Below are positions 8,979 to 62,262 of a DNA stretch of 64,000 bases, piece after piece; the first letter of the stretch is position 1; the number at the start of each line of letters is the position of its first letter. The notes beneath the pieces are model-generated. The model was given only the letters and a program-made list of their open reading frames with translations, made no database searches and had not been told where the DNA came from. Source of the DNA: a candidate division Kazan bacterium RIFCSPHIGHO2_01_FULL_44_14 (GTDB lineage Bacteria; Patescibacteriota; Kazan-3B-28); contig METB01000001.1 of assembly GCA_001771185.1 (NCBI GenBank), positions 5,875 to 69,874 of the forward strand. The letters are read 5' to 3'. A program made the position numbers and the translations under genes.

Positions 8979-9007
8979 TTGACAAATCTGATTTTTTCTG
9001 GTATAAT
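8979..9007 (+). promoter_or_regulatory. Consensus sigma70 promoter TTGACA-N17-TATAAT
   Basis: ttgaca aatctgattttttctgg tataat, 7 nt upstream of the ATG at 9014. Confidence 0.65.
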
Positions 9008-9819: not shown

Positions 9820-10182
9820 GTGAGCACCTTGAAGGTAATATCTGCGGTCAGGAATTGTTTGCACTACTTGAACAATGGGGGCAAGAACGGGACGGTTTAT
9901 ATGCCAGTTGAGTTGCCTGACGGCAATCGGTTAGAAATGTGGGCCACATTTCAACATCATTCTAAATCCCACCAATCCCATCGGTTGATGGTGGTGAGGG
10001 GCGTGGATTTGAATTATGTTACAGATCGTCTCTTGCCGTTGATTCGCACTAATGGGCGTGATGTTCGAGTGGTTGAGGGTTGGGATCGATCCAGATTACT
10101 ATTTGAATTTGGGTTCAACTTTGATTTACTCGGACCCAATCAGCCCCTGGCTGATCCAACCTGCGTTCTAGTCCTTCAGTAA
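9820..10182 (+). CDS. Hypothetical protein
   Basis: 120 aa, downstream of the hydrolase, followed by a hairpin plus T-tract at about 10185-10225. Confidence 0.35.
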   Translation: MSTLKVISAVRNCLHYLNNGGKNGTVYMPVELPDGNRLEMWATFQHHSKSHQSHRLMVVRGVDLNYVTDRLLPLIRTNGRDVRVVEGWDRSRLLFEFGFNFDLLGPNQPLADPTCVLVLQ

Positions 10183-10309
10183 GCCGTCCTGCTACACAGC
10201 AGAACGGCTTTTTTATGTCCAAAAGGGTTGTCAGGCCACCAAGAGATGTGATATATAAGGGTTGTTGTTGGTTGTCCGCCCAATCGGCAATAGTTTGAAC
10301 CTTTAGGAG

Positions 10310-10543
10310 ATGCTAATGTCAGCTAAACATTCAGTTCCGAGGACGCTACCACCGGGGCATTCGATCAAGAAAGCGCAGGACAAGCTCCAGGAGTATGAGA
10401 AGCAAGCTCGGAATCAGGATGACCACCCCGTTCAGGTACCACTGTCCGTGGTACTGTTTGCGGCACCTGGTGTAGATCCAAATGAGATTATCGCAGACAT
10501 GGACAACTGTGTTCTTGTCGATGACACTCAAGGGTATGGGTAA
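10310..10543 (+). CDS. Small hypothetical protein
   Basis: 77 aa, followed by a strong terminator. Confidence 0.3.
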   Translation: MLMSAKHSVPRTLPPGHSIKKAQDKLQEYEKQARNQDDHPVQVPLSVVLFAAPGVDPNEIIADMDNCVLVDDTQGYG

Positions 10544-10600
10544 ACCGTAATTCGGTTCTCGTCAGGTTTATTTAGTGGTTGTTTCGTTCTTGTTCGTTTT

Positions 10601-10628
10601 GGGCCCCTGCGGGGGCCCTTTTTCTTTA
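10601..10628 (+). terminator. Rho-independent terminator gggcccctgcgggggccc + TTTTTCTTT
   Basis: A perfect GC hairpin followed by a T-tract. Confidence 0.7.
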
Positions 10629-10698
10629 TCCCATTTCTCTGTTCCCACCGCTTGAAAAATAGGGTTTTTTCGGCTATATTTTACCTATAGAAAGGAGA

Positions 10699-11703
10699 TT
10701 GGATTGGATGGAAATTGAGGAAGAAATTACGCCCGAGGAGGTCGCAGAAATAAACCAGGAGGCAACGGAAATGAAAAAACCTAGACGGCCACGGAGTACT
10801 GGTCTGATTTTGACTATCTTTGCTTCGATTATTGTGATTTTGATTGGCGGATTGGCTTCGTATTACTATTACACTTTCCAACGCCAGGGAGTAGCCAGTG
10901 AACAGGAACTGCGCGACATTTGGGACGAAACGGTACTGGCAACCGTTCAATTAACCAACAAATTTAAAACTATCGACCAATTTGAAAAACTGGATGTTAG
11001 CGGAAGTGGCTCGTTTAAAGAGGCCTTAACCGACGCGAATCGGACAGTTAGGGACGGGATGTTTTCGTTGAGAAATCAAACTGGTCTAGCAGTCGGTGCT
11101 AGTACTTTTGCTAGTAAATTAAACGCGTTTTTGGATGATTACAGCAGTATGTTGGCGGAAATGAAGCGAATCGTGGATCGACGAGCTGAAATTGATAACA
11201 TTACCGCGTTGGATCAGTTGCTGGTGTATCAGGATGCGATGGAGAAATCGTATGATGATTTGCTACTGACTAGCCGGGGCTTTATTCAGGCCAACTTATC
11301 GCGGGACATTTTTGATATGCCGGACAAGCTAGTGGATTTGTTAAAGCAACAATTAGATACTCAAGGAACTCAAGATGACCAGGAAAAGGCGGCCAAGCAG
11401 GCAGCTGAAGCGATAGTAACCCAATTCGCCCAGGCCTGGCAAGACCGTAATGCTAGTGCAATGACAGCGGCGCTAACGACTGGGGCGAAGCGAGAGTTTA
11501 ACCAGGCGGTATTGGAGGACTCATCGGATATTGTTAGTTTTCGGATTATTAGCACAACTTTAACCGATCAGACCAAGGCCAATATTACTGGCCAATTAGC
11601 CAAGAAAACCCCAGATGGAGTGACCAAGACGGAGGATTGGCAATTTGTGGTATTGAAAGGAATCGGAGATACTTGGCTGATTGATAGTTGGCAGGCAAAA
11701 TAG
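10699..11703 (+). CDS. Membrane-anchored hypothetical protein (acidic N-tail, one TM, periplasmic/extracellular domain)
   Basis: 334 aa. TM helix LILTIFASIIVILIGGLASYYYY. No recognisable catalytic motif. Confidence 0.45.
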   Translation: MDWMEIEEEITPEEVAEINQEATEMKKPRRPRSTGLILTIFASIIVILIGGLASYYYYTFQRQGVASEQELRDIWDETVLATVQLTNKFKTIDQFEKLDVSGSGSFKEALTDANRTVRDGMFSLRNQTGLAVGASTFASKLNAFLDDYSSMLAEMKRIVDRRAEIDNITALDQLLVYQDAMEKSYDDLLLTSRGFIQANLSRDIFDMPDKLVDLLKQQLDTQGTQDDQEKAAKQAAEAIVTQFAQAWQDRNASAMTAALTTGAKREFNQAVLEDSSDIVSFRIISTTLTDQTKANITGQLAKKTPDGVTKTEDWQFVVLKGIGDTWLIDSWQAK

Positions 11704-11957
11704 TAGAGTAGTTAAGACGCCGGACGGGCTAAGCCAGGCGCTCGAATGTAATTGGCTGACCTTAAGTTTGTAGGTAGATGGCCCAGTAGAAGAAATTTCA
11801 TTGTGCTTTGCACTGATATCCTCCGGATATATGAACTTTTCTCTACCGGGTGACCCCGTAGAGAAATTTAGAATGCCGGCGAGTATTCTCTGCGGAAACC
11901 AGTTATTATAATTTCGTGTCGCCGGTATAATGCATATTTTCTAAATTCTTCTACGGG

Positions 11958-14774
11958 GTGGACGATAATAATCTCGGACAAATAGAATTGCGCGGGCTAG
12001 AGACGGAAATGCAGCAGTCGTATTTAAGTTACGCCATGAGCGTAATTGTGGCTCGGGCATTGCCGGATGTGCGTGATGGATTGAAACCGGTGCATCGGCG
12101 GATTTTGTATGCCATGAGTCGGGAAGGGTTAAGGCATACTGCCAAATATTCCAAATCCGCTGGGGTGGTTGGAGAAATGCTGAAAAAGTATCACCCACAT
12201 GGCGATATGGCGGTTTATGATGCGATGGTGCGGTTGGCCCAGCCCTGGAATATGCGGTATATGTTGGTAGATGGTCAGGGAAACTTTGGCTCAATTGATG
12301 GCGACTCGGCGGCCGCTTATCGGTATACCGAGGCCAGGTTGGCCGCAATTGCTGATGAAGTATTGGCCGATTTAGACAAGGAAACGGTTGAATTCATTCC
12401 CAACTTCGATGACACTACCAAGGAACCGACTGTATTGCCGACCAAGGTGCCTCAACTTTTAATGAACGGAACAGTTGGTATCGCCGTGGGTATGGCGACC
12501 AGTATCCCGCCACATAATTTGAGCGAGTTAATGGATGCAATTGCTCATCTGATTGTTAATCCCGAATCGGAAGTGGACGATTTAATGAAATATATTAAAG
12601 GTCCTGATTTTCCGACTGGTGGAATTATTTTTAATCCGAAAGATATCAAAGAGGCCTACGCGACTGGTCATGGCAAGATTGTGATGCGAGCGGTGGCCGA
12701 GATTGTCGAAGGCAAAAATGGTCATCAGATTATTGTCAGTGAGTTGCCTTATCAGGTGAATAAATCCAATCTAGTGGAGTCGATTGCTGATCTAGTTAAG
12801 AATAAGAAACTAGTTGGGATTGCTGATTTGCGTGACGAATCGGATCGCCGGGGAATTCGAATCGCGGTGGACTTAAAGCGCGACGCTTATCCGCGCAAAA
12901 TTTTGAATCAGTTGTTCAAGATGACACAGATGCAGTCGAGTTTCCATGTGAACTTGCTGGCGTTGGTGGACGGTATTCAGCCCCGGGTGTTAGACCTGCG
13001 GGCGACTTTGCAATATTTCATCGACCATCGGCGGATTGTCGTGACTCGGCGAACCCAGTTTGAATTAAAGAAGGCCGAAGAGCGAGCGCATATTTTGGAA
13101 GGGTTCATGATTGCTTTAAAAAATATTGATGAGGTGATTAAGACCATCAAGCAGTCAGCCACCAAAGAAGAGGCCCATGTCAATTTAAAAAAGAAGTTTA
13201 AGTTATCCGATTTACAGGCCTCGGCCATTTTGGAAATGCGATTGTCGGCCCTAGCTGGGTTAGAACGGAAAAAAGTCGAAGACGAGTATAAAGAAAAGCA
13301 ACAACTCATCAAGGATTTAAGGGCGTTGTTGGCTGACAAAAATAAGATTGATGAAGTAATTAAAGCGGAATGTTTGGAGATTAAGACCAAATATGGCGAT
13401 AAGCGTCGGACCCAAATTAGTGGGACAACGGTTGGCGATTTTACTGACATGGATTTGATTCCCAACGAAGAGGTGGTAGTAACAATGAGCATTGGCGGAT
13501 ATATTAAGCGTCAACAGATTGGCGAATTCCGAACTCAACGCCGAGGCGGTAAGGGAGTGATTGGAATGACTACCAAAGAAGAGGACCAAATTAGCAGTAT
13601 CCAAGTAGCTAAAAACCACGATGATATTCTATTCTTCACCAACCGCGGACGGGTGTTTAAACAGAAAGTATTTGAAGTGCCAAAGGCATCGCGGATTGCT
13701 CGGGGAGCAGCGGTGGTAAATATTATTCAGATTGCACCTGATGAATTAGTCACTTCAGTGATGACGCTATCTGATTTTGATGACAAAGATGACTTGGTGA
13801 TGTTTACCAAGCAGGGAGTAATTAAAAAGACCTCACTGGTGGCCTACGCCAATATTCGGAGTAACGGTTTGATTGCGATTAAGTTAGACGAAGGTGACGA
13901 ACTGACTTGGGTTAGGCGGTCTCGTCCTGGTGATGAAGTGATTATCGCGACGCGTTTAGGCCAGTCGATTCGGTTTAAAGAGACCGATGCCAGGTCGCTT
14001 GGACGATCGACTCGGGGAGTGCGGGCAATTAAATTGCGACCAAAAGACGAAGTGATTGGAGCGGATATTGCCAAACAGGGAGAGGTGATGGCTTTGCTGG
14101 TAATTTCCGAAAAAGGTTCTGGCAAACGGACATTGGTCTCACAGTACACTTTGCAACATCGTGGTGGGATTGGGATTAAGACCATGAATATTACTGACAA
14201 GACCGGTAAATTAATCGGAGCCAAATTGGTGGATAAAGGTCTTAAGAGTGACATGATTGTTACTTCGACTGAAGGCCAAATTATTCGAATGCCACTAAAG
14301 GGGGTGCCGACGCTTGGTCGAGCGACTCAAGGCGTCCGGTTGATGCGACTGAAGGGGAATGACAAGGTGGCTTCTTTCACGGTCTTAATTATGGAAGAAG
14401 CCGATGGTTCGTTGAGTAACCCGAATGAGGAATTAACCGAAAGTGAGCTGGCTAAATTGCCGGTGGTGGAAGTGATGGCGGAAGAAGAAAAACCAACCCC
14501 AGTAAAAGTGGCCAAGCCGGTTTCAGCGAAAATAACTAAACCATCCGCGTTGGTATCTAAATCTAAACCATCATTTGCCAAGCGAACATTAGCCAAGCCG
14601 GTTACTGCCAAGTCAGTTAGTCGAATGAAGGCCAAAGCAACTAAACCAGTAGCCAAGAAATCATTTACCGTGCGTAAATTGGCTAAACCGACCAAAATTA
14701 AATCATCTAGCCGAATCAAACATAAGACAGTTAAACAACCCGTTAAAAGTTTTACCCGCAGGAAACTGCGTTAG
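11958..14774 (+). CDS. gyrA: DNA gyrase subunit A with a lysine-rich (AKP/KPxxK) basic C-terminal tail
   Basis: [29 protein letters not shown], the catalytic Tyr region, and beta-pinwheel repeats. The last ~100 aa are K/A/P-rich. GTG start. Confidence 0.95.
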
Positions 14775-33991: not shown

Positions 33992-34846
33992 ATGGAAGTT
34001 GCAACTAACATCAAGCGGATAACGATTCAAGATACTGCATACCCAGTGTGGCTACGGGAAATACCGGATGCCCCGCAGGAAATATATGTGCGGGGAGAAT
34101 TAGCCGAGGCCAAAATACCGCGGATTGCCGTAGTGGGGACGCGGAAACCGACTCCATACGGAATCCAAACAACCGAAAGATTAGTAACAGCAATTTCACC
34201 GCACTGTATAACAATCAGCGGGTTGGCTTATGGAGTAGATGCATTGGCCCACAAAGTGGCTTTGAAATCAGGCGGAATTACTTGGGCGGTATTGGGAACG
34301 GGATTGGATGATGCTAGTATCTATCCGCCACAACACTTGGTACTGGCTCAACAAATCATGGCTTCGGGCGGTGCGCTGATTTCCGAATATCCGCCGGGGA
34401 CACCGCCGATGAAACATCATTTTCCGATGCGGAATCGAATTATTGCTGGTCTAAGTGAAAAAGTAGTGATTATTGAAGCTCCCGAAAGCAGCGGAGCGGT
34501 GATTACCGCCAAATTAGCTCTTGATTACAACCGGGACGTTTTGGCTGTTCCGGGGCCAATTTTCAGTCCTAATTCGGTGGGAACTAATCGATTGATTGCC
34601 GAAGGGGCCAAACCGGTTCTATCGGCCAGCGATATTATTGAAGTCACGACCACAGTTAATTCGGAAAAGTTGACGGAACGGGAAGCAATGATTTATAACG
34701 CTCTTGTGGCTGGTCCCAGACATATTAATGAAGTGGTTCAAATTACCGGTCTGGGTATGGCAATTGTGAGCAGCGAGTTGACATTACTGGAAATTCAAGG
34801 CAAAGTCCGGTGTGTTGGGAATGGTACCTTCACAGTTATCCAATAA
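33992..34846 (+). CDS. dprA: DNA processing protein DprA (Smf)
   Basis: Rossmann-like DprA core: GLAYGVDALAHKVAL...GTGLD...YPP. It sits next to topA. Confidence 0.85.
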   Translation: MEVATNIKRITIQDTAYPVWLREIPDAPQEIYVRGELAEAKIPRIAVVGTRKPTPYGIQTTERLVTAISPHCITISGLAYGVDALAHKVALKSGGITWAVLGTGLDDASIYPPQHLVLAQQIMASGGALISEYPPGTPPMKHHFPMRNRIIAGLSEKVVIIEAPESSGAVITAKLALDYNRDVLAVPGPIFSPNSVGTNRLIAEGAKPVLSASDIIEVTTTVNSEKLTEREAMIYNALVAGPRHINEVVQITGLGMAIVSSELTLLEIQGKVRCVGNGTFTVIQ

Positions 34847-34899
34847 CTGTGAAATAATCAATCACCAAATAACAATAATCAAAAGTATAAAGAAAAAGT

Positions 34900-37104
34900 A
34901 TGAGTAAAAATTTAGTGGTAGTGGAATCGCCGGCTAAGGCGCGCACCATCGAGAAAATTTTGGGGAAAGGATATACCGTAGAGGCCAGTTTTGGGCATGT
35001 CCGGGATTTACCGCAATCAAAGTTAGGGGTAGATATTGAACATGATTTTGAACCACAGTACATTACTCCGACCAAAAATCGTAAAACAATTACTAAATTA
35101 AAAGAACTGTTTGCTAAAGCCGAAACCTTATATCTAGCGACTGACGAAGACCGAGAAGGGGAAGCGATTGCTTGGCATATTCAGCAAGCCCTGAAAGCAC
35201 CGTCAACTCAAATTAAACGGGTGGCGTTTCATGAAATTACCCCTGAGGCAATCGAAGAGGCCTTTCACCATCCGCGGGACTTGAATCAGAATTTGGTGAA
35301 TGCCCAGCAAGCCCGGCGAATTCTGGATCGGTTAGTTGGGTACAAACTTAGTCCGTTACTTTGGAAAAAACTATTTCGGGGGTTGTCGGCTGGCCGAGTT
35401 CAGTCAGTGACTTTGCGGCTACTGGTAGAACGCGAGCGGGAAATCCAGGCGTTTAAGCCAGAAGAATTTTGGAAGATAGAAGTTAAATTTAAAACTTCGG
35501 CTGGAGACGAGTTCAGCGCTTGGGTGTTTGCGGAAAAAGACAAGGAGGTCGAATTAAAGACCGAGGCCGAAGCCAAGAGGTTAGAAGAGGCCGTTAACTC
35601 GGCGACTCAACATCAAATTGATTCACTCACTTCGGCCGAACGGAAACGCTATCCGGCTCCGCCGTTTACTACTTCGACTCTGCAGCAGCAAGCGAGTAAT
35701 CAGTTAGGTTTTACGGTTAAGCGAACGATGATGATTGCTCAACGGCTGTACGAAGGAGTGGATATTAACGGCAGCGGTCCAATCGGATTGATTACTTACA
35801 TGCGGACCGATTCGACCAATGTGGCCAGTTCGGCGATTACGGGGGCCAGGTTAGTGATTGGTCAAAGGTTTGGGAAAGAGTATTTGCCAGATCAGCCAAT
35901 TTTTTATAAAACTAGAATCAAGGGAGCCCAGGAAGCGCATGAAGCTATTCGCCCGACTCGTCCGGACTTAACTCCGGAAATGTTGGAAAATAAATTAACT
36001 CCAGAACAATGGAAGTTATACAAGTTGATTTGGCAGCGATTGATCGCCAGCCAAATGTTGCCAGCGATAATTAATACCCGGGAAGCGATTGTGACTTCGA
36101 ATGAAATTAAAAGCAAAGCGCTGGGGGCCACGGTGATTTTTCCGGGTTTTGCCAAAGTATTTGATAAGTGGCCGTTCCAGGAAAATCAGTTGCCAAAATT
36201 AGTCGAAAATGAATTGGTGAAATTATTGGGCGTGGATCCGACCCAACATTTTACCGAACCACCGGCGCGGTATACCGAAGCCAGTTTGGTAAAACAATTA
36301 GAGCAAATGGGAATTGGTCGGCCTAGTACTTATGCGCCAACGATTACTACGCTGTCGGTGAGAGGATATGTGAAGAAAGAAAAACGATCATTGGTCCCAC
36401 AGGACTTGGGAATTACGGTAAATGATTTTTTGGTGGAGCATTTCCCGGATATTATTGACTACAACTTTACAGCCGAGATGGAAGAGAGTTTGGATGATAT
36501 CGCGGAAGGTAAAAAAGAGTGGGTGCCAGTTATTCGTAATTTTTATGAGCCGTTTGAGGCCCAATTAAAATTGAAGGAAGCCACCGTCGAAAAACAAACT
36601 CCTGAAGATGTTAAAACCGATAAAAAATGTGCACTGTGTGGTTCGGCCTTAGTTATGAAGACCAGTCGGTTTGGTAAGTTTTTGGCGTGTTCTGGTTTTC
36701 CAAAATGTCGGTACACCGAAGCTCTGGATGGTGACGGCAAAAGTCAAACCGAGGCGACTGACAAAATTTGTTCCGATTGCGGTGCGCCGCTAGTCAAAAA
36801 GCGGGGACGGTTTGGGATGTTTTATGGCTGCAGCAATTATCCCAAATGTAAACATATCGAAAATATTGAACCAAAAGCCAGTGATATGGCGTGCCCTAAA
36901 TGTACTGACGGCAAAGTGGTGGAACGCCGAACCAAACGAGGCAAAGTATTTTGGGGTTGTAGTAATTATCCGAAATGCGATTTCGCTTCATGGGATGAAC
37001 CATTGAAGGAACCATGTCCAACTTGTCGTGGGCTAATGACTAAGCCGATAAAGAAAGGGTATCCGGTTTGCACGAAGTGTGGATATGAGGAAAAAGGGGC
37101 ATAG
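34900..37104 (+). CDS. topA: DNA topoisomerase I with multiple C-terminal zinc ribbons
   Basis: Toprim (LVVVESPAKA), catalytic Tyr region (LITYMRTDS), and 3-4 C-x2-C...C-x2-C zinc-ribbon repeats. Confidence 0.95.
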   Translation: MSKNLVVVESPAKARTIEKILGKGYTVEASFGHVRDLPQSKLGVDIEHDFEPQYITPTKNRKTITKLKELFAKAETLYLATDEDREGEAIAWHIQQALKAPSTQIKRVAFHEITPEAIEEAFHHPRDLNQNLVNAQQARRILDRLVGYKLSPLLWKKLFRGLSAGRVQSVTLRLLVEREREIQAFKPEEFWKIEVKFKTSAGDEFSAWVFAEKDKEVELKTEAEAKRLEEAVNSATQHQIDSLTSAERKRYPAPPFTTSTLQQQASNQLGFTVKRTMMIAQRLYEGVDINGSGPIGLITYMRTDSTNVASSAITGARLVIGQRFGKEYLPDQPIFYKTRIKGAQEAHEAIRPTRPDLTPEMLENKLTPEQWKLYKLIWQRLIASQMLPAIINTREAIVTSNEIKSKALGATVIFPGFAKVFDKWPFQENQLPKLVENELVKLLGVDPTQHFTEPPARYTEASLVKQLEQMGIGRPSTYAPTITTLSVRGYVKKEKRSLVPQDLGITVNDFLVEHFPDIIDYNFTAEMEESLDDIAEGKKEWVPVIRNFYEPFEAQLKLKEATVEKQTPEDVKTDKKCALCGSALVMKTSRFGKFLACSGFPKCRYTEALDGDGKSQTEATDKICSDCGAPLVKKRGRFGMFYGCSNYPKCKHIENIEPKASDMACPKCTDGKVVERRTKRGKVFWGCSNYPKCDFASWDEPLKEPCPTCRGLMTKPIKKGYPVCTKCGYEEKGA

Positions 37105-39305: not shown

Positions 39306-39728
39306 ATGCCCAAGCATAGTTTTATGGAGAAAAAGCGAACAAAATTCTGGTGGGCCAAGCCGTGGTTGTACGGTTTTTGGGTGGCCTTAGGTGCATTTGC
39401 ATTAATATTGATTGCTAAGTTTGGGACGGACATGTTATCGGCCAGCCAAGCGGCCACTGCTGATACGGCTGGTGGGATGGGATTTGACGCTTATCTTTGT
39501 TCGGCCATTACTTATGCCAACGCTCTAATCGGCGTGTTGGCGGTATTTACGGTGATTATGGCGGGGGTTTCGTACATGACATCAAGTGGCGGGAAAGAGG
39601 GGATTAGTACTGCAAAAAGTATGATTGTGGCCGCGATTACCGGCGTGTTGTTGTACGCCATGGGGCAGTTGTTACTGGGGACTTGCGGAACTGGGGCTGG
39701 CGGTTTAATTACCCGATTCTTCAACTGA
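39306..39728 (+). CDS. VirB2/TrbC-like type IV secretion pilin candidate
   Basis: 140 aa: a long signal segment, then two hydrophobic helices separated by a short loop (…ALIGVLAVFTVIMAGVSYMTSSGG…IVAAITGVLLYAMG), as in T-pilin/TrbC subunits. Confidence 0.45.
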   Translation: MPKHSFMEKKRTKFWWAKPWLYGFWVALGAFALILIAKFGTDMLSASQAATADTAGGMGFDAYLCSAITYANALIGVLAVFTVIMAGVSYMTSSGGKEGISTAKSMIVAAITGVLLYAMGQLLLGTCGTGAGGLITRFFN

Positions 39729-47633: not shown

Positions 47634-47961
47634 AGGGTTAAGAGATATCCCATTCCCTCCGTTCGTCGGGACATCGCTGGTTCCTCGGGGAAGTAGGTAA
47701 GCGGGTTAGCCGGTAAGCAAAACCCACCGAGTGGCTCTTTGATTCTGCTGTACAGCAGAACTACGGAAGGACCTGCGGTGATAGGTGATAAGTGACAAGT
47801 TTAGGGGAAGACGGGTAGGAGAGAGGGAACGACTCGGGATAGTAGCCAGTAAATACGCTCGTGGAGCGTATTTATGTTGATTTTGTCCACATTTTTACAG
47901 GGGTAGAACGCAGTTGACAAACACCTGGCGATATGGTATAATTAGGATGTAGGTAGAGAAC

Positions 47962-49086
47962 ATGGAAAATTCCGACAACAACATGGAGCCAGAATCGGTA
48001 ATCAAATCGATTATGGTTGAACAGGAAGAAAAGAGCCGGGGAGCGCTTGATCCTTTTGTGGTGGCAATCAATGCGATGAATGGTCTTAAAGAAAGAGAGC
48101 GCGATGTGATAATCAACCGCTACGGTTTAGAGAATGGTAAGAAAGTGACATTAGAAGCGGTGGGTAAAAAGTTTAATATTACTCGTGAGCGGGTTCGTCA
48201 GATTGAATCCGCGACTTTGCGCAAACTAATTGAAAAACCAACTAAGGATTTGGTGCAATTGATTAAATTGATCAATAGTCATTTATCTGAAGTTGGCGGA
48301 GTATTGTCGGTTAATGGTTTGACTAGTTATCTAAAATCACCTCAAGCCGATCAGGCGGAACTTAAAACTAATGCTTTGCGGTTAGTGATGGACGTAAACG
48401 AAGCAGTAGTGGCATTACCGAATTTGTCAGAACTGCAGACCGGTTGGATGAAGCGCGGTTTCCCGCAAAATTTAATTACGCCGATTTTATCGGCTTTGGC
48501 CAAGGTTTTGACTGATGCCAATCGGACGATGACCGAAAAAGAATTATGGGAAGCACTATTGCATCAAGAGACCTACCAAACTTATGAATCACAACTTAGC
48601 CCAACAATATTAACTGGACTGCTAAGCATCTCAACTCAAATTGCTCAAGCGGCTGATGGTAAGTGGGGACTGGCTGCCTGGCCAACTGTGGTGCCGAAGC
48701 GAATTCGGGATAAGGTATTTTTGATTTTAGAAGTCAGTGGTAAACCGAAGCATTTTACTGATATTGCTGAAGCGATTAACCGGGCTTATCCGGCGGGAAA
48801 GCCAGTATTGAGTCGGACGGTCCACAATGAATTGATTGGCGACAAGCGGTTTGTGTTGGTCGGTCGAGGGATTTATGCTTTGAAATCCTGGGGGTTCCAG
48901 CCGGGCGTGGTTTTAGATGTGGTGAAAGAAGTTTTGAAACAAGCCGGTCGGCCGTTGTCAGTTGAAGATATTATCGAAGCCGTATTGGCAAAACGGGAAG
49001 TGAAACGAAATACGGTAGTGGCTAACTTACAGAATAAATCGATGTTTAGAAAAGTTGGTCGCGGTTTGTACGAATTGGTGGAATAA
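47962..49086 (+). CDS. Protein with an N-terminal sigma-70 region-4-like HTH and a ~280-aa unknown C-terminal domain
   Basis: [12 protein letters not shown]...[27 protein letters not shown] matches the sigma70 r4 signature. It lies immediately upstream of the HerA/TraD-like ATPase. Confidence 0.5.
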
Positions 49087-49110
49087 TTAGTTAGATTTAA
49101 TAACGCAGAT

Positions 49111-52014
49111 ATGTTCTTGAGCGGATGGAATTTGCTACTCGTCAGCTTACTGGTAACTGGTTGGCTGATTTTGTTTTGGCTGGTTGTTGTTTGGCGGAAG
49201 AATTCGATTAATAGTCGGCCGATGGTGGAACCAACTACTAAACCGGCAGGGTTGGCCGAATCCAAAATTACACCGACCACGGTGCCGATTTCAGCAGAAG
49301 GCAAGAGTCAGGAAGGGGTGGTGTTAGCAATCGAAGTACCAAAAGAAAATGAGACCACGCCATTGGCGGCCGAATTGATGTTCGCTTCTCTGCACGGGAT
49401 TTATCGGCCAGAGTTGGATAAGCGCAAGGATTTAACCCAAGAACATGTTGCGTTTGAATTGCAGGCCAAAGAAAAATCAATTCGATTTTTTGTGTGGGTA
49501 CCGCGTCATTTGCAGGGCTATGTCGAAGGACAAGTTTATGCCCAGTACCCAGGTGTAAATGTGTATGAAGTGAAGGATTATGCCAAGACCGAAAAAGTCG
49601 AGGGTGACTTGAGCGCGGCCGCAGCCGAGTTGTCATTGGTTCGAGAAGATATTTTCCCGATTAAGGGTTTTGATAACTTTGATGTTGATCCATTGGCTGG
49701 GATTACGGCGACTTTGAGCAAACTAGAAGGAGTATCGCAAGTCCGGATCCAAATTTTGATGCGGCCAGAAAGTGACGCCTGGAGAAATCGAGCGATTAAC
49801 TATATCGCAGCAATTAAGGCCGGTAAGAAGGACTTTAAAACTACTCTGATAAAGGGGCTGACCGGCTTGGCTTCGGATGTGGTGCGGACCGCAATTAGCG
49901 GTCAACCAACTCCACCGCTAGTTCCCGGTAAAGTTGAATTAGCGCCAGGGGTAGATGAAGTTTTAAAACGAATTGAAGAGAAAAGTAATAAACTGGGTTT
50001 TCAAACTCGGATTCGGATAGTGGCTCTGGACCAATCTATTCCAACGGCTCGACAGAAATTGGATTTGGTAGTTGGTTCATTCAAACAATTCAATACCACT
50101 AACCTGAATGGTTTTGTAGCATCTCCGATTAGCGCATCGGCGGCAGCAATTTTACGGGCCTATGAACAACGTCAATTTGGTGGCAGCGGTTCGGTATTAA
50201 ATGTCGCGGAACTGGCCAGCATTTATCATTTGCCGAGTAAAACCGTGACTACTCCGCATATTGTGTGGGCGGGAAGTAAGAAGGGGGAGCCACCGGCGAA
50301 TTTGCCGTTGGCGGATGAAATTCCGGCTGAAGAACTGACGAATTTAGGCCTGACTGATTTCCGTGGTAGCACGGAAAAATTTGGGATTAAAATAAAAGAT
50401 CGTCGCCGACATATTTATATCATTGGGAAAAGCGGTGTAGGTAAATCAACATTATTAGAGAATATGACACTCGATGATATTCGCGAACGGAGGGGGGTGG
50501 GGGTAGTGGATCCGCACGGTGAGTATGTGGATTATGTGTTGGAGCGAATTCCGTCTTATCGAGTGAATGATGTGATTATATTTGATCCAGGCGACCGGGC
50601 CTTTCCAATTGGATTTAATGTTTTGGAAGTTGATACTCCAGACCAAAAAGTAGTCACGGCTTCGGGAGTAGTCGGCGTATTCAAAAAAATCTTTGGTGAG
50701 TCGTGGGGGCCACGACTTGAATATTGGTTGTCTTCGGCTATCTTGGCTTTGCTGGACTATCCTGACGCGACTCTGATGATGGTCCCGCGGTTATTCACGG
50801 ATGACATATTTCGGGCAGGAGTAATTGATGTGGTGAAAGATCCAGTAATCAAACAGCGCTGGTTAAATGAATACGATCGGTTGGATCAGCGCCAAAGAAA
50901 TGAAACAATTTCACCAATTTTAAATAAGGTCGGGCAGTTCTTGTCGTCTTCGGTTATCCGTAATATTGTGGGCCAGCCCAAGAGTTCGATTGATATGCGA
51001 CAAGTAATGGATGAAGGCAAAATCGTTTTGATTAAATTGGCCAAGGGGTTGATTGGGGAAGATAACGCGGCGTTACTTGGAGCGTTAATGATTACCAAGT
51101 TACAGTTGGCGGCTTTGAGCCGGGCCGATGTCGAAGAAACCAAACGGCCTGATTTTTTCTTGTATGTGGATGAGTTCCAAAACTTTGCCACTGATTCGTT
51201 TGCCACGATTTTGTCGGAAGCCAGAAAATATCATTTGAGTTTAACATTGGCCAACCAATATATGAGCCAATTGTCCGATACGGTTAAGAACGCAATTTTT
51301 GGTAATGTCGGAACCCTAATTTCATTTAGAGTTGGTGGTGATGACGCAGGATTTTTGACCAAGGAATTTGCGCCAGTATTTGACGAGCAGGACTTGGTCA
51401 ATTTGGACATTTTCAAAATCTATTTGAAATTGTCGATTGACGGGCTGACAGCAAACGCGTTCTCGGCCGTGACTTTGCCGCCTTCAACCGATCAAAATCA
51501 AGGTAATGATAAAATCATTAAGTTGTCGCGGGAGCGGTATGCCAAAGATGTGGCATTCGTGGAGGGCAAGGTGCTATCAAGTGCGGATGTCAGCGCGGCA
51601 CTGTCTTCGGCGGGGCAATCCCGGCCTCCACAGTCGTCTCGATACTCCCAACGGCCACAGATGGGCAATAGAGCGCCTTATGCACCTTCTTATCCGGCCA
51701 GTCCGGCTTATCGTCAACCCGGTCTGTCGGCCAGTTCTTCTGCTCCCACCCGGCAGGGTCCAAAAGTGGATTTGTTGAAGAATTTGATCTCTAAAGTTGA
51801 GCGTCAAAAGCAGACGCCGTTGAGCGAAAGCGAAAAAGCCGATGTGGCAAAGACCTTGATGAATGACTTGAAAGACGCTGACGGTTCAATGAAAGACGCA
51901 CTGGATCGAGCCAGGAAACAGCGGGAAGAGGAACAAAAAAACTCCAGCGAACTAAAACCGAACGAGACAATCAAGTTGGATGATGATTATGATCCGCATA
52001 ATGAGCGGAGATAA
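49111..52014 (+). CDS. Membrane-anchored HerA/DUF87 + TraD/TraG-C-like P-loop ATPase (type IV coupling-protein-like), paralog 1
   Basis: N-terminal TM helix, Walker A GKSGVGKST followed by VVDPHGEY (the HerA-like hallmark), C-terminal FLYVDEFQNF...ARKYHLSLTLANQ (TraD/TraG C-terminal-like), and a disordered S/P/Q-rich tail. Confidence 0.65.
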   Translation: MFLSGWNLLLVSLLVTGWLILFWLVVVWRKNSINSRPMVEPTTKPAGLAESKITPTTVPISAEGKSQEGVVLAIEVPKENETTPLAAELMFASLHGIYRPELDKRKDLTQEHVAFELQAKEKSIRFFVWVPRHLQGYVEGQVYAQYPGVNVYEVKDYAKTEKVEGDLSAAAAELSLVREDIFPIKGFDNFDVDPLAGITATLSKLEGVSQVRIQILMRPESDAWRNRAINYIAAIKAGKKDFKTTLIKGLTGLASDVVRTAISGQPTPPLVPGKVELAPGVDEVLKRIEEKSNKLGFQTRIRIVALDQSIPTARQKLDLVVGSFKQFNTTNLNGFVASPISASAAAILRAYEQRQFGGSGSVLNVAELASIYHLPSKTVTTPHIVWAGSKKGEPPANLPLADEIPAEELTNLGLTDFRGSTEKFGIKIKDRRRHIYIIGKSGVGKSTLLENMTLDDIRERRGVGVVDPHGEYVDYVLERIPSYRVNDVIIFDPGDRAFPIGFNVLEVDTPDQKVVTASGVVGVFKKIFGESWGPRLEYWLSSAILALLDYPDATLMMVPRLFTDDIFRAGVIDVVKDPVIKQRWLNEYDRLDQRQRNETISPILNKVGQFLSSSVIRNIVGQPKSSIDMRQVMDEGKIVLIKLAKGLIGEDNAALLGALMITKLQLAALSRADVEETKRPDFFLYVDEFQNFATDSFATILSEARKYHLSLTLANQYMSQLSDTVKNAIFGNVGTLISFRVGGDDAGFLTKEFAPVFDEQDLVNLDIFKIYLKLSIDGLTANAFSAVTLPPSTDQNQGNDKIIKLSRERYAKDVAFVEGKVLSSADVSAALSSAGQSRPPQSSRYSQRPQMGNRAPYAPSYPASPAYRQPGLSASSSAPTRQGPKVDLLKNLISKVERQKQTPLSESEKADVAKTLMNDLKDADGSMKDALDRARKQREEEQKNSSELKPNETIKLDDDYDPHNERR

Positions 52015-58098: not shown

Positions 58099-59463
58099 AT
58101 GAATAAAACAATCGACAAATATGAGGCGACGATTGGACTGGAAATCCACGTTCAACTTGGAACCAAATCCAAGATGTTTTGTCGGTGCGACAATAATTCG
58201 GATACAGCCAAACCCAATACCAATGTCTGCCCAGTGTGCATGGGCTATCCTGGAACTTTGCCGGTGATTAATGGTCAAACAATCGATTGGGGAATTAAAA
58301 CCGCTCTAGCGTTGGGTTGTTCGATTAATCCAATGCAACGGTTTGATCGCAAAAATTATTTTTATCCTGATTTACCCAAGGGTTATCAAATTTCCCAATT
58401 CTTTTATCCGGTGGGTGAAAAAGGTAATCTGGTGGTGGATTATTTGGGGACTGATCGGAAGACCAAACATGAATTTACAGTCGGGATTACCCGACTCCAT
58501 TTAGAAGAAGATGCCGGAAAACTGGTCCATACTTCGGATGCTACATTGGTGGACTTGAATCGGTGTGGGACTCCATTGGCCGAAATTGTAACCGAACCAG
58601 ACATTAAGTCGCCCGAAGAAGCCAGGGCGTTTATGCAGGAACTGCAATGCCTCGTTCGATTACTGGGTGTGTCATCGGCTGACATGGAAAAAGGTCACCT
58701 GCGGGTGGACGCGAATGTATCGGTCAGACCAATTGGACAGCCAACATTAGGAGCCAAAGTCGAAGTTAAAAACATGAACTCGTTTAAGTTTATGGAACAA
58801 GCGCTCAAATTTGAAATTGTTAGACAGACCGAAATGTTGGAACGGGGCGAGAAAATAGAACAAGAAACCAGGGGCTGGGACGAAAAAACCAATTCAACTG
58901 TGTCGCAACGCAGTAAAGAAGGTTCGGTGGACTATCGGTATTTCCCAGAACCGGATTTGCCACCGATTACTATCAATGATGAACAGATCGAAAAGTGGAA
59001 CCGATCATTGATATTGCCGTCCGTTCTGCGCGAAAGAGCAGAACAAAAAGGTTTAGCATATGACCGGGTTGTTGAATTACAAGATAAAGATAAGTTGGTG
59101 CTGTTTTTGGGGGTGTTGCATTCAAGGGGTGGACTCAATCCTACCCAAGTCGCAAACTGGATTGAAAAATTTAATGACGAGGAAAAGTTAATCGAATTTA
59201 TGGATGTAGTTGGTAAACACAATCTTTCAACTACGGCTGCCAAAAAATATTTAGAAACCGGTAAAATTCCCGAAACAATGGATGATGCTGTTTTGCGAGA
59301 AATGGTCGGTCAGGTATTAGATGAAAATCCGGAGGTGGTAGCCAAGTTTAAGGCCGGTGATGTTAAGGTGTCGGCCTATTTGATGGGGCAAGTGATCAAA
59401 AAGAGTGGGGGAGGGGCAGAACCCGCTCTGGTACAGCAAATTTTGATAGACCTATTGACATAA
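58099..59463 (+). CDS. gatB: Glu-tRNA(Gln) amidotransferase subunit B
   Basis: IGLEIHVQL, a C-x2-C Zn site, and a C-terminal GatB/YqeY domain. Confidence 0.95.
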   Translation: MNKTIDKYEATIGLEIHVQLGTKSKMFCRCDNNSDTAKPNTNVCPVCMGYPGTLPVINGQTIDWGIKTALALGCSINPMQRFDRKNYFYPDLPKGYQISQFFYPVGEKGNLVVDYLGTDRKTKHEFTVGITRLHLEEDAGKLVHTSDATLVDLNRCGTPLAEIVTEPDIKSPEEARAFMQELQCLVRLLGVSSADMEKGHLRVDANVSVRPIGQPTLGAKVEVKNMNSFKFMEQALKFEIVRQTEMLERGEKIEQETRGWDEKTNSTVSQRSKEGSVDYRYFPEPDLPPITINDEQIEKWNRSLILPSVLRERAEQKGLAYDRVVELQDKDKLVLFLGVLHSRGGLNPTQVANWIEKFNDEEKLIEFMDVVGKHNLSTTAAKKYLETGKIPETMDDAVLREMVGQVLDENPEVVAKFKAGDVKVSAYLMGQVIKKSGGGAEPALVQQILIDLLT

Positions 59464-59517
59464 TAAATAAAGTGTGGTATAATAGATTTGAAAGGTAAAA
59501 ATAACGAAAAACCGTTT

Positions 59518-59847
59518 ATGGGACAAGAAAAACGGGGGAATAATAAGCAAGAAGGACAGAAGGGTTCATTTTACGAACAAGATAAAAAACCCCAGCCAAT
59601 TGAGCTAACTGGTTCGAGGATGGCTCCAGACGCCGAGTTTGAGCCAGAGGTGGCGGTGCCTTTTTCTGATCACGAGGCATTTCCAGAGGACGCCAATCAG
59701 AGAGCGGTTGGAATAATGGAAGTAGTTACAGAAAGAAGTTTAGGCCAATCGGATGATATTTACGCCAAGATTGATGAGATTCTCGACTCAAATCTAACGA
59801 CAGATAGTAGAGCGATGTATAAGGTTACAAACGCGCTCAATAACTAA
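59518..59847 (+). CDS. Small acidic hypothetical protein upstream of ATPase paralog 2
   Basis: About 110 aa from the ATG at 59518, rich in E/D/P. Confidence 0.35.
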   Translation: MGQEKRGNNKQEGQKGSFYEQDKKPQPIELTGSRMAPDAEFEPEVAVPFSDHEAFPEDANQRAVGIMEVVTERSLGQSDDIYAKIDEILDSNLTTDSRAMYKVTNALNN

Positions 59848-59856
59848 AACCGAATC

Positions 59857-62262
59857 ATGACTTGGCTGGGGATAATAATTGGATTGGTTGGGCTGGCCAT
59901 TATCGGCTGGTTTATTTTTATGCGCAAAAAGCCAGTAGTTCAGCAAGACGATGTTAGAACTCGGGTTAATTTAATGATTACAGTCCCACAGGGGAAGAGA
60001 GACGACGCCCAAAAAGAACTCAAGGCATTGATTTCGCCAATGGAAGTAATTTTGGGAAACCTGACCGGAGTAGCCGAAGTGGTAGGGGAACGGCACTTTA
60101 CTTTTGAAATTGCGACCGAAGGGGAGTTGATTACATTTTACTTAACTGCGCCTGAAGAACTGGTAGATTTTGTGGAAAAACAAATTACTTCTCAATATCC
60201 GGAAGCGGCGGTGGAACGGGCGCCGTATCCAAATATTTTTCCCAAAGAGGGGAGAACGGCGGCTACTCAACTTAAATTAAAGAAAGAAAGTTGGTTGCCG
60301 ATTGTAACTTTTGAAAAGATGACAACTGACGGATTGAATGCGTTAACCAACGCTTTAAGTAAATTGGTAGATATGAAGTCCGGGGCCAGTATTCAGATTG
60401 CTTTTCGTCCAACTACTAATAGCAAATGGCAAGGAAAAGCCCACGGTATCGCTCGGGCCATGCAACAAGGCAAGGAATCAGGTAGTATCAGTAAAGGAGT
60501 AATTAAAGGCCTGACTGGGCTAGTTGGCCCCCAAGATAAAGACAAGGGTGGCGAAGTTCCGAAGAAGTTGACTCAACTTCAGGAAGAGGTGATTGGCCGG
60601 ATTGAACAAAAGGCCTCAAAACCAGGATTTGATGTAGTAATCCGATTAATCACCGCTGCTCCAGACGAACCATCTGCTAGAATGCACCTCAAGTCATTGG
60701 CAGATAGTTTTTTGCAATTTAGTTCGCCGGAGTTAAATCAATTTGAAGCCAGCAATCAAATCGAACAAGAAGTAATTCGCAATTATGTATTGCGTCAGTT
60801 TGGTGACATAAAAAATAGTTTCATTTTAAATACTGAAGAGTTAGCGACTATTTTCCATATTCCAACAGTTCAGACCGATACACCAAACCTTAGATGGCAA
60901 AAAGCCAAGCGGTTGGCTGGACCGGACAATCTGCCGAGTGAAGGTGTGATTTTGGGTAAAAATGTGTTTCGAGGAGTCGAAAAAACGGTTCGAATCAAAA
61001 CTGATGACCGGCGTCGGCATATTTATACGATTGGTAAAACCGGGACTGGTAAAACTACCTGGATGCAGAATCTGGCCTTGCAGGACATTATCAATGGCGA
61101 GGGAGTGTGTGTAATTGATCCTCACGGCGACATGATTGAATGGATTCTTCAGCGGGTGCCAAAAGACCGGGTAGATGATGTAATCTATTTTTATCCGCCA
61201 GACATTGAACGACCGTTAGGATTGAATTTATTAGAAGCCAAAACCGCGGCCGCGCGCGATATGGTGGTAGCGGAAATGATCGCGATTTTCTATAAGTTAT
61301 TTGATCCGCAGAGTTCAGGAATTGTCGGTCCGATTTTTGAACACTATATGCGAAATTCGATGTTGCTACTACTGGCCGATTCTGAAGAAGGGGCGACGCT
61401 CATTGATATTCCGAGGGTCTTTACTGACAGGGCGTTTCGCGAACGCAAGTTACAACATGTGACCGACCCAACGGTGTTGCGGTTCTGGAAAGAAGAGTTT
61501 GCCCAGGCCGAAAAAAGTAATCAAGTAGGGGAGTTGTTCTCTTATATTGTTTCGAAGGTGGGACGGTTTATTAGCAACGAAATGATGCGGAATATTGTTG
61601 GTCAAACCAAGAGCGCTTTTGATATTCGAGACATTATGGACAACAAAAAGATTTTATTGGTGAACTTGGCTAAGGGCTTAACTGGTGATATTAACAGCAA
61701 CCTGCTCGGATTTATTATTGTGTCAAAACTGCAGATGGCAGCGCTTAGTCGGGCCGATGTGCCAGAAGCCAACCGGCCTGACTTCTATTTGTATATTGAT
61801 GAATTTCAGAATGTAACCACCGATTCAATTTCAACGATTTTGTCAGAGGCCAGAAAGTATCGGCTGAACTTAACTATCGCTCACCAGTTTGTGGCTCAAC
61901 TAGAAGATAAGATTCGTGATGCGGTGCTAGGCAATGTGGGCTCGATTGTGGCCTTCCGAATTGGAGCACTGGACACCGATGTAATCGGCAAGGAATTTGC
62001 GCCAGAAGTGAGTGAGAATGATTTAGTGAATATTGAGAGTCGGAATGCCTATGTGAAATTAATGATTAGTGGAGCCTCTAGCAAGCCCTTTACCATGCAG
62101 ACACTACCCCCAATGGGGTCTGATAACCCTCGAATTGGTCAGGCCATCAAGCAACTGTCACGACTGAAGTTTGGTAAAGATCGCCGGACTGTCGAATTAC
62201 AGGTCGGAGAAAGAATTAAATATGTGAAAGATATTGACCTGTCTGGGAGGTTGCCATTATAG
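59857..62262 (+). CDS. Membrane-anchored HerA/DUF87 + TraD/TraG-C-like ATPase, paralog 2
   Basis: Same architecture as 49111-52014: TM helix, Walker A GKTGTGKTT + VIDPHGDM, and YLYIDEFQNV...ARKYRLNLTIAHQ. The N-terminal ~400-aa domains are also homologous. Confidence 0.65.
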   Translation: MTWLGIIIGLVGLAIIGWFIFMRKKPVVQQDDVRTRVNLMITVPQGKRDDAQKELKALISPMEVILGNLTGVAEVVGERHFTFEIATEGELITFYLTAPEELVDFVEKQITSQYPEAAVERAPYPNIFPKEGRTAATQLKLKKESWLPIVTFEKMTTDGLNALTNALSKLVDMKSGASIQIAFRPTTNSKWQGKAHGIARAMQQGKESGSISKGVIKGLTGLVGPQDKDKGGEVPKKLTQLQEEVIGRIEQKASKPGFDVVIRLITAAPDEPSARMHLKSLADSFLQFSSPELNQFEASNQIEQEVIRNYVLRQFGDIKNSFILNTEELATIFHIPTVQTDTPNLRWQKAKRLAGPDNLPSEGVILGKNVFRGVEKTVRIKTDDRRRHIYTIGKTGTGKTTWMQNLALQDIINGEGVCVIDPHGDMIEWILQRVPKDRVDDVIYFYPPDIERPLGLNLLEAKTAAARDMVVAEMIAIFYKLFDPQSSGIVGPIFEHYMRNSMLLLLADSEEGATLIDIPRVFTDRAFRERKLQHVTDPTVLRFWKEEFAQAEKSNQVGELFSYIVSKVGRFISNEMMRNIVGQTKSAFDIRDIMDNKKILLVNLAKGLTGDINSNLLGFIIVSKLQMAALSRADVPEANRPDFYLYIDEFQNVTTDSISTILSEARKYRLNLTIAHQFVAQLEDKIRDAVLGNVGSIVAFRIGALDTDVIGKEFAPEVSENDLVNIESRNAYVKLMISGASSKPFTMQTLPPMGSDNPRIGQAIKQLSRLKFGKDRRTVELQVGERIKYVKDIDLSGRLPL

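Follow-up and report, generated by a model that had tools for sequence, protein, structure and literature searches.

The 64,000-nt stretch of a candidate division Kazan genome analyzed here (contig METB01000001.1; hereafter the window) encodes two paralogous, membrane-anchored ATPases, which we designate par1 and par2. These proteins represent two ancient clades extending across Patescibacteria, and each clade has a conserved neighbour of its own. The gene upstream of par1 specifies a protein in which a sigma-70 region 4 is followed by four tandem winged helices (the sigma4/4xWH protein; its family is referred to as sigma4/WH). The gene downstream of par2 specifies a 176-residue protein, P176. 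The data described below support the notion that both ATPases are of the type IV coupling protein (T4CP) kind. We tentatively favour the idea that they constitute a Patescibacteria-wide chromosomal pair of VirD4/TrwB-type motors that have cytoplasmic partners of their own and probably work for the patescibacterial type IV secretion system (T4SS).

A large part of bacterial diversity belongs to Patescibacteria, which live off the resources of host cells. Their T4SS is essential, yet no coupling protein or substrate has been assigned to it. The locus points to a phylum-wide and experimentally tractable set composed of two coupling-type ATPases, a sigma4/winged-helix protein and a large family devoid of Pfam domains. 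Essentiality of the sigma4/WH gene, of one ATPase paralogue and of the small gene upstream from the latter is already on record for a cultivable Saccharibacterium, where it was not discussed.

The two ATPases and their N-terminal domain

An initial annotation of the window had singled out the open reading frames (ORFs) for sigma4/4xWH, par1 and par2, all present as listed in Table 1, and had ascribed a common architecture to the two ATPases. Comparison bears this out. Par1 and par2 are 40% identical across 726 aligned residues (E 6e-165). Both begin with a single N-terminal hydrophobic helix, which precedes an N-domain of ~340-400 aa and a P-loop ATPase containing Walker A (GKSGVGKS in par1, GKTGTGKT in par2), a DPHGE or DPHGD motif, Walker B (YVDEFQN) and an ARKY motif. 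In par2, the transmembrane (TM) helix spans aa 1-19 and is followed by the N-domain and by an ATPase with intact motifs; the catalytic motifs are kept in both clades (93 sequences). The AlphaFold2 (AF2) model of par1 residues 1-830 (predicted local distance difference test, pLDDT, 83.8) starts with a long helix that a flexible linker joins to an alpha/beta N-domain (aa 69-375); in the ATPase, a predicted all-alpha insert (aa 510-620) separates Walker A from Walker B. The disordered tail of par1 terminates in ELKPNETIKLDDD. Tails of par1-clade proteins are often long and disordered, frequently ending in [LI]K[PE]G[EQ]x[IV]x[LF]; occurrence of this motif does not correlate cleanly with the presence of a sigma4/WH gene. 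Three proteins of the survey described below (L040, L042 and L079) carry a CxxC...CxxC zinc-ribbon-like motif (e.g. FKPDPEKEVFCKECYEKRK) in its place.

Pfam matches to TrwB_AAD_bind, DUF87, TraG-D_C and T4SS-DNA_transf were obtained with both ATPases; they are weak and mostly partial, yet above the gathering scores. When a profile built from 60 family sequences was aligned to R388 TrwB, hhalign returned a probability of 93.5% (E 2e-7) over 267 columns, from Walker A to past Walker B. The same profile scored 79% against patescibacterial VirB4 and 4.8% against R388 VirB4 (TrwK), in the latter case with just 37 columns around Walker A. Foldseek aligned the par1 ATPase with TrwB at a TM-score of 0.64-0.66 and a root mean square deviation of ~4.5 Å across ~415 columns, the all-alpha domain included; DotL and Cag-beta were matched too. 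The best Foldseek E-value was that of full-length VirB4/TrwK (3e-15, ~890 columns), but with a TM-score of merely 0.27-0.30. By these profile and structure matches, the motor is of the coupling protein type, as the initial annotation had proposed.

Likeness to T4CPs (VirD4, TrwB of R388, TraD, DotL, Cag-beta) includes the P-loop domain with its inserted all-alpha domain, the DP(H/N/K)G(D/E) motif past Walker A, the ARK...Q...SQL region past Walker B, the membrane tether and, in many cases, a disordered C-terminal tail with a short terminal motif as a possible adaptor-binding site. Unlike T4CPs, par1 and par2 have one TM helix rather than two with a short external loop between them, and possess an additional cytoplasmic domain of ~340 aa, DUF8128, which is sometimes a separate gene. 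They also differ in being present as two paralogues per genome, in the chromosomal core, with no relaxase and usually far from virB4; moreover, neither sigma4/4xWH nor P176 is a known T4CP adaptor. With VirB4 (TrwK) and VirB3-VirB4 fusions, the two proteins share a membrane anchor, an N-terminal domain and a C-terminal ATPase of the FtsK/HerA superfamily, but their ATPase domain is closer to TrwB and no CagE_TrbE_VirB domain is found at the N terminus. The "HerA-like" label applied initially holds for the shared P-loop and not beyond it: DUF87 matches cover ~50-70 residues around Walker A rather than the full core, HerA structures align at a TM-score of 0.30, and neither a HAS barrel nor a NurA-like neighbour was seen.

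The region first described as an N-terminal domain of ~400 aa exists in both proteins, but it corresponds to a ~340-aa domain able to occur as a separate membrane-anchored protein. Pfam searches with the N-domains of both ATPases gave no match, CagE_TrbE_VirB included, even at E up to 10; the precomputed Pfam annotation assigns DUF8128 (PF26449) to both N-domains and to all listed homologues. In the two paralogues of Southlakia epibionticum (see below), DPAM assigns no domain to this region. The DUF8128 segment of par1 closes with a conserved PPANLP junction. In Parcubacteria-type genomes (L013, L015, L017, L018, L025, L028, L032, L063, L080 and others), par1 is split into two ORFs: the first comprises the TM helix and DUF8128, usually ending at the conserved PPxNLP motif or a few residues away from it, and the second specifies the ATPase with no TM helix. 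Altogether, these data show that each ATPase is tethered at the cytoplasmic face of the membrane through a single N-terminal helix and DUF8128. Identity of DUF8128 with the N-domain of VirB4 was considered but found no support in profile comparisons: the comparison with patescibacterial VirB4 gave an hhalign probability of 0.2%, the family profile performed poorly against R388 TrwK as reported above, and only the full-length Foldseek alignment of low TM-score spoke in its favour. Our literature search returned no description of DUF8128/PF26449.

Two clades and their conserved neighbours

Scanning one genome per species yielded 80 loci, of which those with informative titles are from Patescibacteria. 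Metagenome-assembled genomes titled "uncultured Gammaproteobacteria" or "Saccharibacteria" (L034-L036, L056, L058-L064 and others) have ATPases that cluster with those labelled Microgenomates or Berkelbacteria, and their labels look unreliable. A neighbour-joining tree of 93 ATPase domains separates the par2 clade from the par1 clade. A single family recurs strongly among all the neighbours of the ATPase genes, namely sigma4/WH. It lies directly upstream, on the same strand, in 30 of 64 assessable par1-clade units (19 of the 24 split forms) and in 0 of 17 par2-clade genes. Fifteen loci could be assessed in an independent scan of metagenomes that took the sigma4/WH protein as its anchor. The DUF8128 gene comes next in 14 of them, including four in which no ATPase gene follows DUF8128; three of these four read leuS, sigma4/WH, DUF8128, mltG/yceG. 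Thus, the tightest partnership is that of sigma4/WH with DUF8128. Berkelbacteria-like loci have par2, P176, sigma4/WH and par1 in a single run. The ATPases were already known ("T4CP homologues"), and DUF8128 is listed in Pfam; we found no published description of the two-clade organization, of the split form or of sigma4/4xWH and P176 as partners. As a separate observation, the leucyl-tRNA synthetase genes upstream of sigma4/WH in two loci (L091:450-3833 and L096:2987-5830) contain an inserted NUDIX domain (E 2e-26 and 2e-12, respectively).

The initial annotation had noted a resemblance to sigma-70 region 4 in the protein preceding par1, at the N terminus, where this region is not usually located. 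Pfam matches Sigma70_r4 to aa 38-89 (E 6e-15) and detects HARE-HTH further on (E 3e-10), the latter fold making up the final two of the four winged helices. Neither Pfam nor NCBIfam finds a sigma region 2 or 3, and NCBIfam sigma matches are confined to aa ~36-100. In structural comparisons using the AF2 model (pLDDT 90.6), Foldseek superposed region 4 of Thermus (Taq) sigmaA at 0.6-1.1 Å with 54-56% identity; tandem winged-helix proteins were also matched (SelB C terminus, UFL1/DDRGK1, Dcc1). When only the winged-helix part was used as query against 1.84 billion representative proteins, 1,607 clusters were retrieved, 856 of them at E up to 1e-10. Full-length matches among the best 150 measure 330-405 aa, with ~90 residues preceding the matched part. 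Sigma70_r4 and HARE-HTH are both found in 88 of 88 members scanned, and no other sigma region is matched. Residues R75, E76, R77, R79 and Q80, which correspond in our alignment to the -35 contacts R584, E585, R586, R588 and Q589 of E. coli sigma70, are invariant in all 88 proteins, at an overall identity of just 31-41%. The invariant contacts and the Foldseek fit therefore identify a true region 4, not a generic helix-turn-helix, and its N-terminal placement is a fixed trait of a large, separate family that lacks regions 2 and 3.

Region 4.2 of sigma4/4xWH shares 54-61% identity with the corresponding part of primary sigma factors and retains every -35 contact. As for its HARE-HTH, this is of the type found in the delta subunit (RpoE) of RNA polymerase, a protein of low-GC Gram-positives with an N-terminal HARE-HTH and a long acidic C-terminal tail. 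The delta model TIGR04567 matches aa 250-310 only, at 41.0 bits (cutoff, 42), and no acidic C-terminal tail is present in the sequence. Unlike sigma factors and RpoE, sigma4/4xWH has neither regions 2 and 3 nor the acidic tail, contains four winged helices and shows fixed linkage to a membrane protein gene. Combining regions 2 and 4 is the mark of a sigma-70 factor, and sigma4/4xWH has region 4 alone. The split sigma factors SigO-RsoA may be among the systems closest to it. We found nothing in the literature that ties candidate phyla radiation bacteria to a sigma factor, an RNA polymerase delta subunit or RNA polymerase in this connection.

Par2 is bracketed, as noticed at the outset, by a small acidic protein and a 176-aa ORF. 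The latter, then classed as hypothetical, turned out to be a conserved partner of par2: P176 is the immediate 3' neighbour of 11 of 20 par2-clade genes and, in a single instance (L048, positions 9896-13189), it is fused to the C terminus of an ATPase through a Q/P-rich linker. P176 consists of an N-terminal helical stretch and a strongly conserved C-terminal region with the motif FDGE...PANYASKSKLVxGDxLKL. The family counts at least 7,900 homologues, none of them with a Pfam domain or an informative name; searches with P176 itself gave no Pfam, NCBIfam, PADLOC or Protein Data Bank sequence match. The UniRef name for the exact P176 sequence, "50S ribosomal protein L7/L12", looks spurious. One P176 homologue (L024, 12345-13139) has a tail ending similar to the par1-clade motif [LI]K[PE]G[EQ]x[IV]x[LF]. 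The proteins encoded upstream of par2-clade genes are diverse in sequence, only some being Pro/Glu-rich, and common homology among them could not be demonstrated.

Relation to type IV secretion and alternative explanations

According to a phylum-wide survey, 2,918 of 3,035 Patescibacteria genomes contain VirD4-type homologues, 5,713 in total or about two each; just 148 of these homologues are near virB4, and the authors did not exclude exaptation (Quinonero-Coronel et al. 2025; PMC12102498). These "T4CP homologues" are very probably the same genes as par1 and par2, with which they share copy number and rarity near virB4. The study did not separate the clades. It contains no description of DUF8128, of gene fission, of sigma4/WH and P176 as partners, or of the essential scores that the second paralogue and sigma4/WH receive in the Southlakia Tn-seq table discussed below. 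There is no virB4, virB6 or relaxase among the genes of the window, where the ATPases are encoded neither with a DNA transfer and replication module nor with a mating pair formation cluster. Of the 80 loci in our survey, three (L034, L049 and L054) have a VirB4 homologue at a distance of 2-4 kb from a par1-clade gene. One of these (L034, 2661-9888) has a divergent cluster of PrgI, a 218-aa ORF, VirB4 and an M23 hydrolase, adjoining dnaN, beside the par1-clade ATPase; this agrees with the published note that patescibacterial T4SS genes are near the origin. Given the composition of the window, the low frequency of adjacent T4SS clusters and the 148 published cases, the dispersed T4SS-like or DNA-uptake apparatus envisaged initially, pilin-like ORF included, was not substantiated. 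A link of the window genes to host attachment is conjectural.

Published transposon insertion sequencing (Tn-seq) data cover Southlakia epibionticum, whose T4SS is essential and has no recognizable coupling protein (Wang et al. 2023; PMC10633639). In the supplementary data of that study (Tables S1 and S2), SEML1_0294, annotated "RpoS", matches PF04545 at aa 27-72 and PF05066 at aa 225-283 and is divided by ECOD into one tri-helical and three winged domains. It is essential, insertions falling from 24 in the input to 1. Directly downstream, on the same strand, lies SEML1_0293 (921 aa, T4CP-type Pfam matches), which is non-essential. In contrast, the second paralogue, SEML1_0142 (1,019 aa), is essential, as is the 139-aa SEML1_0141 just upstream, the positional counterpart of the small acidic protein preceding par2. 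SEML1_0294, SEML1_0293 and SEML1_0142 are all flagged "core" and "Patescibacteria enriched"; none of them is mentioned in the main text of the paper. The pairing of Southlakia genes with window genes was not sequence-based; it relies on their architecture and adjacency and on the dprA-topA neighbourhood found in both. What the literature conveys as dispensability of "the" Southlakia T4CP homologue applies to one paralogue only. This reading of the Tn-seq table (essential sigma4/WH and second paralogue, dispensable par1 type) was not found in the literature.

In the model that we tentatively favour, the ATPases would dock at the membrane, probably as hexameric rings, and use ATP to engage substrates (nucleic acid or proteins) and push them into the monoderm-type T4SS of the phylum, the cluster of which includes no coupling protein. 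The essential paralogue would be a candidate for the missing coupling protein, and the cytoplasmic partners might serve as adaptors in the manner of TraM or the DotL adaptor proteins. Specifically, sigma4/4xWH could bind DNA through its -35-type region 4 and its winged helices and dock on DUF8128, thereby providing par1 with a nucleic-acid-linked substrate or with a link to promoters or RNA polymerase. As sigma4/4xWH is essential where par1 is not, it should also act outside par1, with par2 or at RNA polymerase. If the partners are indeed adaptors, they would provide the first candidates for substrates or receptors of the T4SS of Patescibacteria.

Several observations weigh against this model. 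Southlakia can do without the par1 orthologue SEML1_0293 but not without its T4SS (PMC10633639). T4CP-like genes are present in 2,918 of 3,035 genomes as opposed to 2,417 of 3,035 for VirB4, nearly all of them are far from virB4, and relaxases are nearly absent from the phylum (PMC12102498). The canonical two-TM membrane domain of T4CPs is replaced by one helix and DUF8128. No sigma4/WH gene is found upstream of par1-clade genes in the Microgenomates-like and the Gracili-/Peregrinibacteria-like branches. Finally, SEML1_0142 was assigned to the par2 clade by length, domain positions and annotation rather than by sequence.

A sigma-like gene followed by the gene for a single-pass membrane protein is the order found in sigma/anti-sigma operons. 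We thus envisaged that sigma4/4xWH could be an essential RNA polymerase or promoter factor, with its free region 4 on the -35 element or the beta-flap and a delta-like HARE-HTH, and that membrane-bound DUF8128 could sequester and release it like an anti-sigma factor while the ATPase couples the state of the machine to expression. Such a secretion-coupled switch would fit the particularly tight linkage to DUF8128, maintained where no ATPase gene follows, the strict conservation of the -35 contacts, the near-cutoff score with the delta model and the essentiality of sigma4/4xWH in the face of a non-essential downstream ATPase. It nonetheless seems unlikely to us: lacking region 2, sigma4/4xWH is unable to act alone as a sigma factor, its binding to RNA polymerase is a conjecture, DUF8128 is cytoplasmic and has no external sensor domain, unlike classical anti-sigma factors, and four winged helices exceed the needs of a simple regulator. 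Were the protein to act at RNA polymerase after all, it would define a new class of essential transcription factor.

A further possibility is that the ATPases work independently of any T4SS, as FtsK- or TraB-like translocases for DNA or RNA involved in import from the host, export or chromosome handling. FtsK/SpoIIIE and Streptomyces TraB are membrane-anchored ring ATPases of the same superfamily in which a winged-helix reader selects the DNA; sigma4/4xWH, a predicted DNA binder with multiple winged helices, would be a sequence reader acting in trans, like FtsK gamma or the TraB winged helix. The distribution of the genes, found in ~96% of genomes compared to ~80% for VirB4 and usually unlinked to T4SS genes (PMC12102498), is consistent with this proposal, as are the dprA-topA neighbourhood common to the window and Southlakia and the unresolved route of host RNA/DNA uptake in Patescibacteria (bioRxiv 10.64898/2026.06.21.733656). 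However, a single TM helix per subunit makes no obvious membrane channel, and par1 and par2 show no match to FtsK_SpoIIIE, FtsK_gamma or FtsK_4TM. Chromosome segregation is already covered in Southlakia by a canonical, essential FtsK (PMC10633639); this and the missing FtsK matches led us to reject a role as FtsK replacement. Furthermore, loss of comEC leaves viability intact (PMC12857230), indicating that DNA uptake by that route is not the essential function. We consider an independent pump of this sort improbable.

A more speculative model is conceivable, which we hold to be quite doubtful: par2, P176, sigma4/4xWH and par1/DUF8128 would form, with the small acidic protein, one Patescibacteria-specific machine. 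Its essential free region 4 would dock on DUF8128 and either hand promoter-type DNA or nucleoprotein to a coupling-type pump, the missing motor for nucleic-acid traffic between epibiont and host, or be retained and let go by the pump, which would couple transcription to secretion or to contact with the host. If true, this would represent a hitherto undescribed use of a sigma domain and of a T4CP.

That sigma4/WH and P176 are functionally unrelated to the ATPases and merely reflect inherited synteny is very unlikely. Patescibacterial genomes are small and keep long syntenic runs of housekeeping genes, SEML1_0294 and SEML1_0293 differ in essentiality, and about half of the par1-clade loci have no sigma4/WH upstream. 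Against this, the pairing persists across lineages whose other neighbours are completely different, tracks DUF8128 through gene fission and is clade-specific (30/64 for par1, 0/17 for par2). In addition, P176 is fused to an ATPase in L048, and the window has sigma4/WH and par1 under one promoter, with a 24-nt gap between them.

There is next to no chance that the locus is a conjugative-element remnant or a HerA- or MADS-like anti-phage system: plasmid-derived Pfam names, weak HerA defence matches and the match of both ATPases to the PADLOC mad8 profile (E 2e-14 and 2e-17) are countered by the lack of any relaxase, integrase, nuclease, methylase or other MADS gene nearby, by a uniform base composition, by the near-universal presence of the genes in the phylum, in families flagged as core, and by the essentiality of one paralogue in Southlakia. 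With no other MADS component in the vicinity, the mad8 match probably reflects shared T4CP/HerA ancestry. A mobile element was ruled out by the even composition, the housekeeping neighbours and the lack of an integrase or relaxase in the window, and a HerA/NurA or defence system was rejected on context and phyletic breadth.

Organization of the locus

The window is chromosomal, its housekeeping genes including recR, cysS, gyrA, infB, uvrB, dprA, topA, uvrA, uvrC, ligA, gatCAB and mfd; base composition is uniform along its length. Positions of the main features and of their domains are given in Table 1.

Table 1. Features of the two ATPase units (positions in the window; aa, residues of the respective protein)
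Feature	Position	Strand	Description	Basis
Perfect sigma-70 consensus promoter	47914..47942	+	TTGACA-N17-TATAAT, TG ahead of -10; 20 nt 5' of the sigma4/WH start codon	
sigma4/4xWH protein	47962..49086	+	374 aa	Pfam, NCBIfam, AF2, Foldseek
sigma4/4xWH, region 4	48049..48234	+	aa ~30-91	
sigma4/4xWH, four tandem winged helices	48244..49083	+	aa 95-374	
par1	49111..52014	+	967 aa, T4CP-type ATPase	Pfam, AF2, Foldseek, hhalign
par1, TM helix	49117..49209	+	aa 3-33 (AF2 helix 5-33)	
par1, DUF8128	49303..50310	+	aa ~65-400	
par1, ATPase with all-alpha insert	50335..51510	+	aa ~409-800	
par1, disordered tail	51598..52011	+	aa 830-967	
Second perfect consensus promoter	59455..59483	+	within gatB 3' end, 5' of the small ORF and par2	
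Small acidic low-complexity protein	59518..59847	+	109 aa as called in public assemblies; ends 9 nt ahead of par2	
par2	59857..62262	+	801 aa, paralogous T4CP-type ATPase, without long tail	
P176	62388..62918	+	176 aa, par2 partner	

Perfect TTGACA-N17-TATAAT promoters occur three times in the 64 kb, compared to 0.02 expected, and all three have the extended form TGgTATAAT. Two of them precede the ATPase units (sigma4/WH-par1 and small ORF-par2). The third, at 8979-9007, is located 5' of an unannotated 261-aa ORF (9014-9799) for which no Pfam match was obtained. In other genomes, near-consensus promoters (TTGAC[AT] at -35, often with TG ahead of -10) are found upstream of most sigma4/WH genes. 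Par1 starts 24 nt past the sigma4/WH stop codon, and the gap contains no terminator-like site. A GC-rich spacer of 280 nt (47634-47913) lies upstream of the sigma4/WH promoter and contains a 12-bp hairpin (47849-47875). The presence of a structured RNA in this spacer was discounted, as Rfam gave no match at E up to 1 and the folding z-score (-0.32) was no better than that of shuffled sequences.

The 140-aa ORF at 39306-39728, suggested initially to specify a VirB2/TrbC-like pilin, does have three hydrophobic segments (aa 19-37, 65-83 and 105-123), as such pilins do, but matches no Pfam or NCBIfam model, those for pilins included; its exact sequence appears as "hypothetical protein" in the Kazan genome. 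The par2 gene is annotated as 449 aa in the NCBI Kazan record (A3K24_00330), whereas the 801-aa ORF is intact here and in three other assemblies. The gene order dprA, topA and, further downstream, sigma4/WH and par1 (33992-37104 and 47962-52014 in the window) is common to Southlakia (SEML1_0298, 0296, 0294 and 0293), and two loci of the survey, L006 and L009, have topA-like ORFs one to two genes upstream of the sigma4/WH gene.

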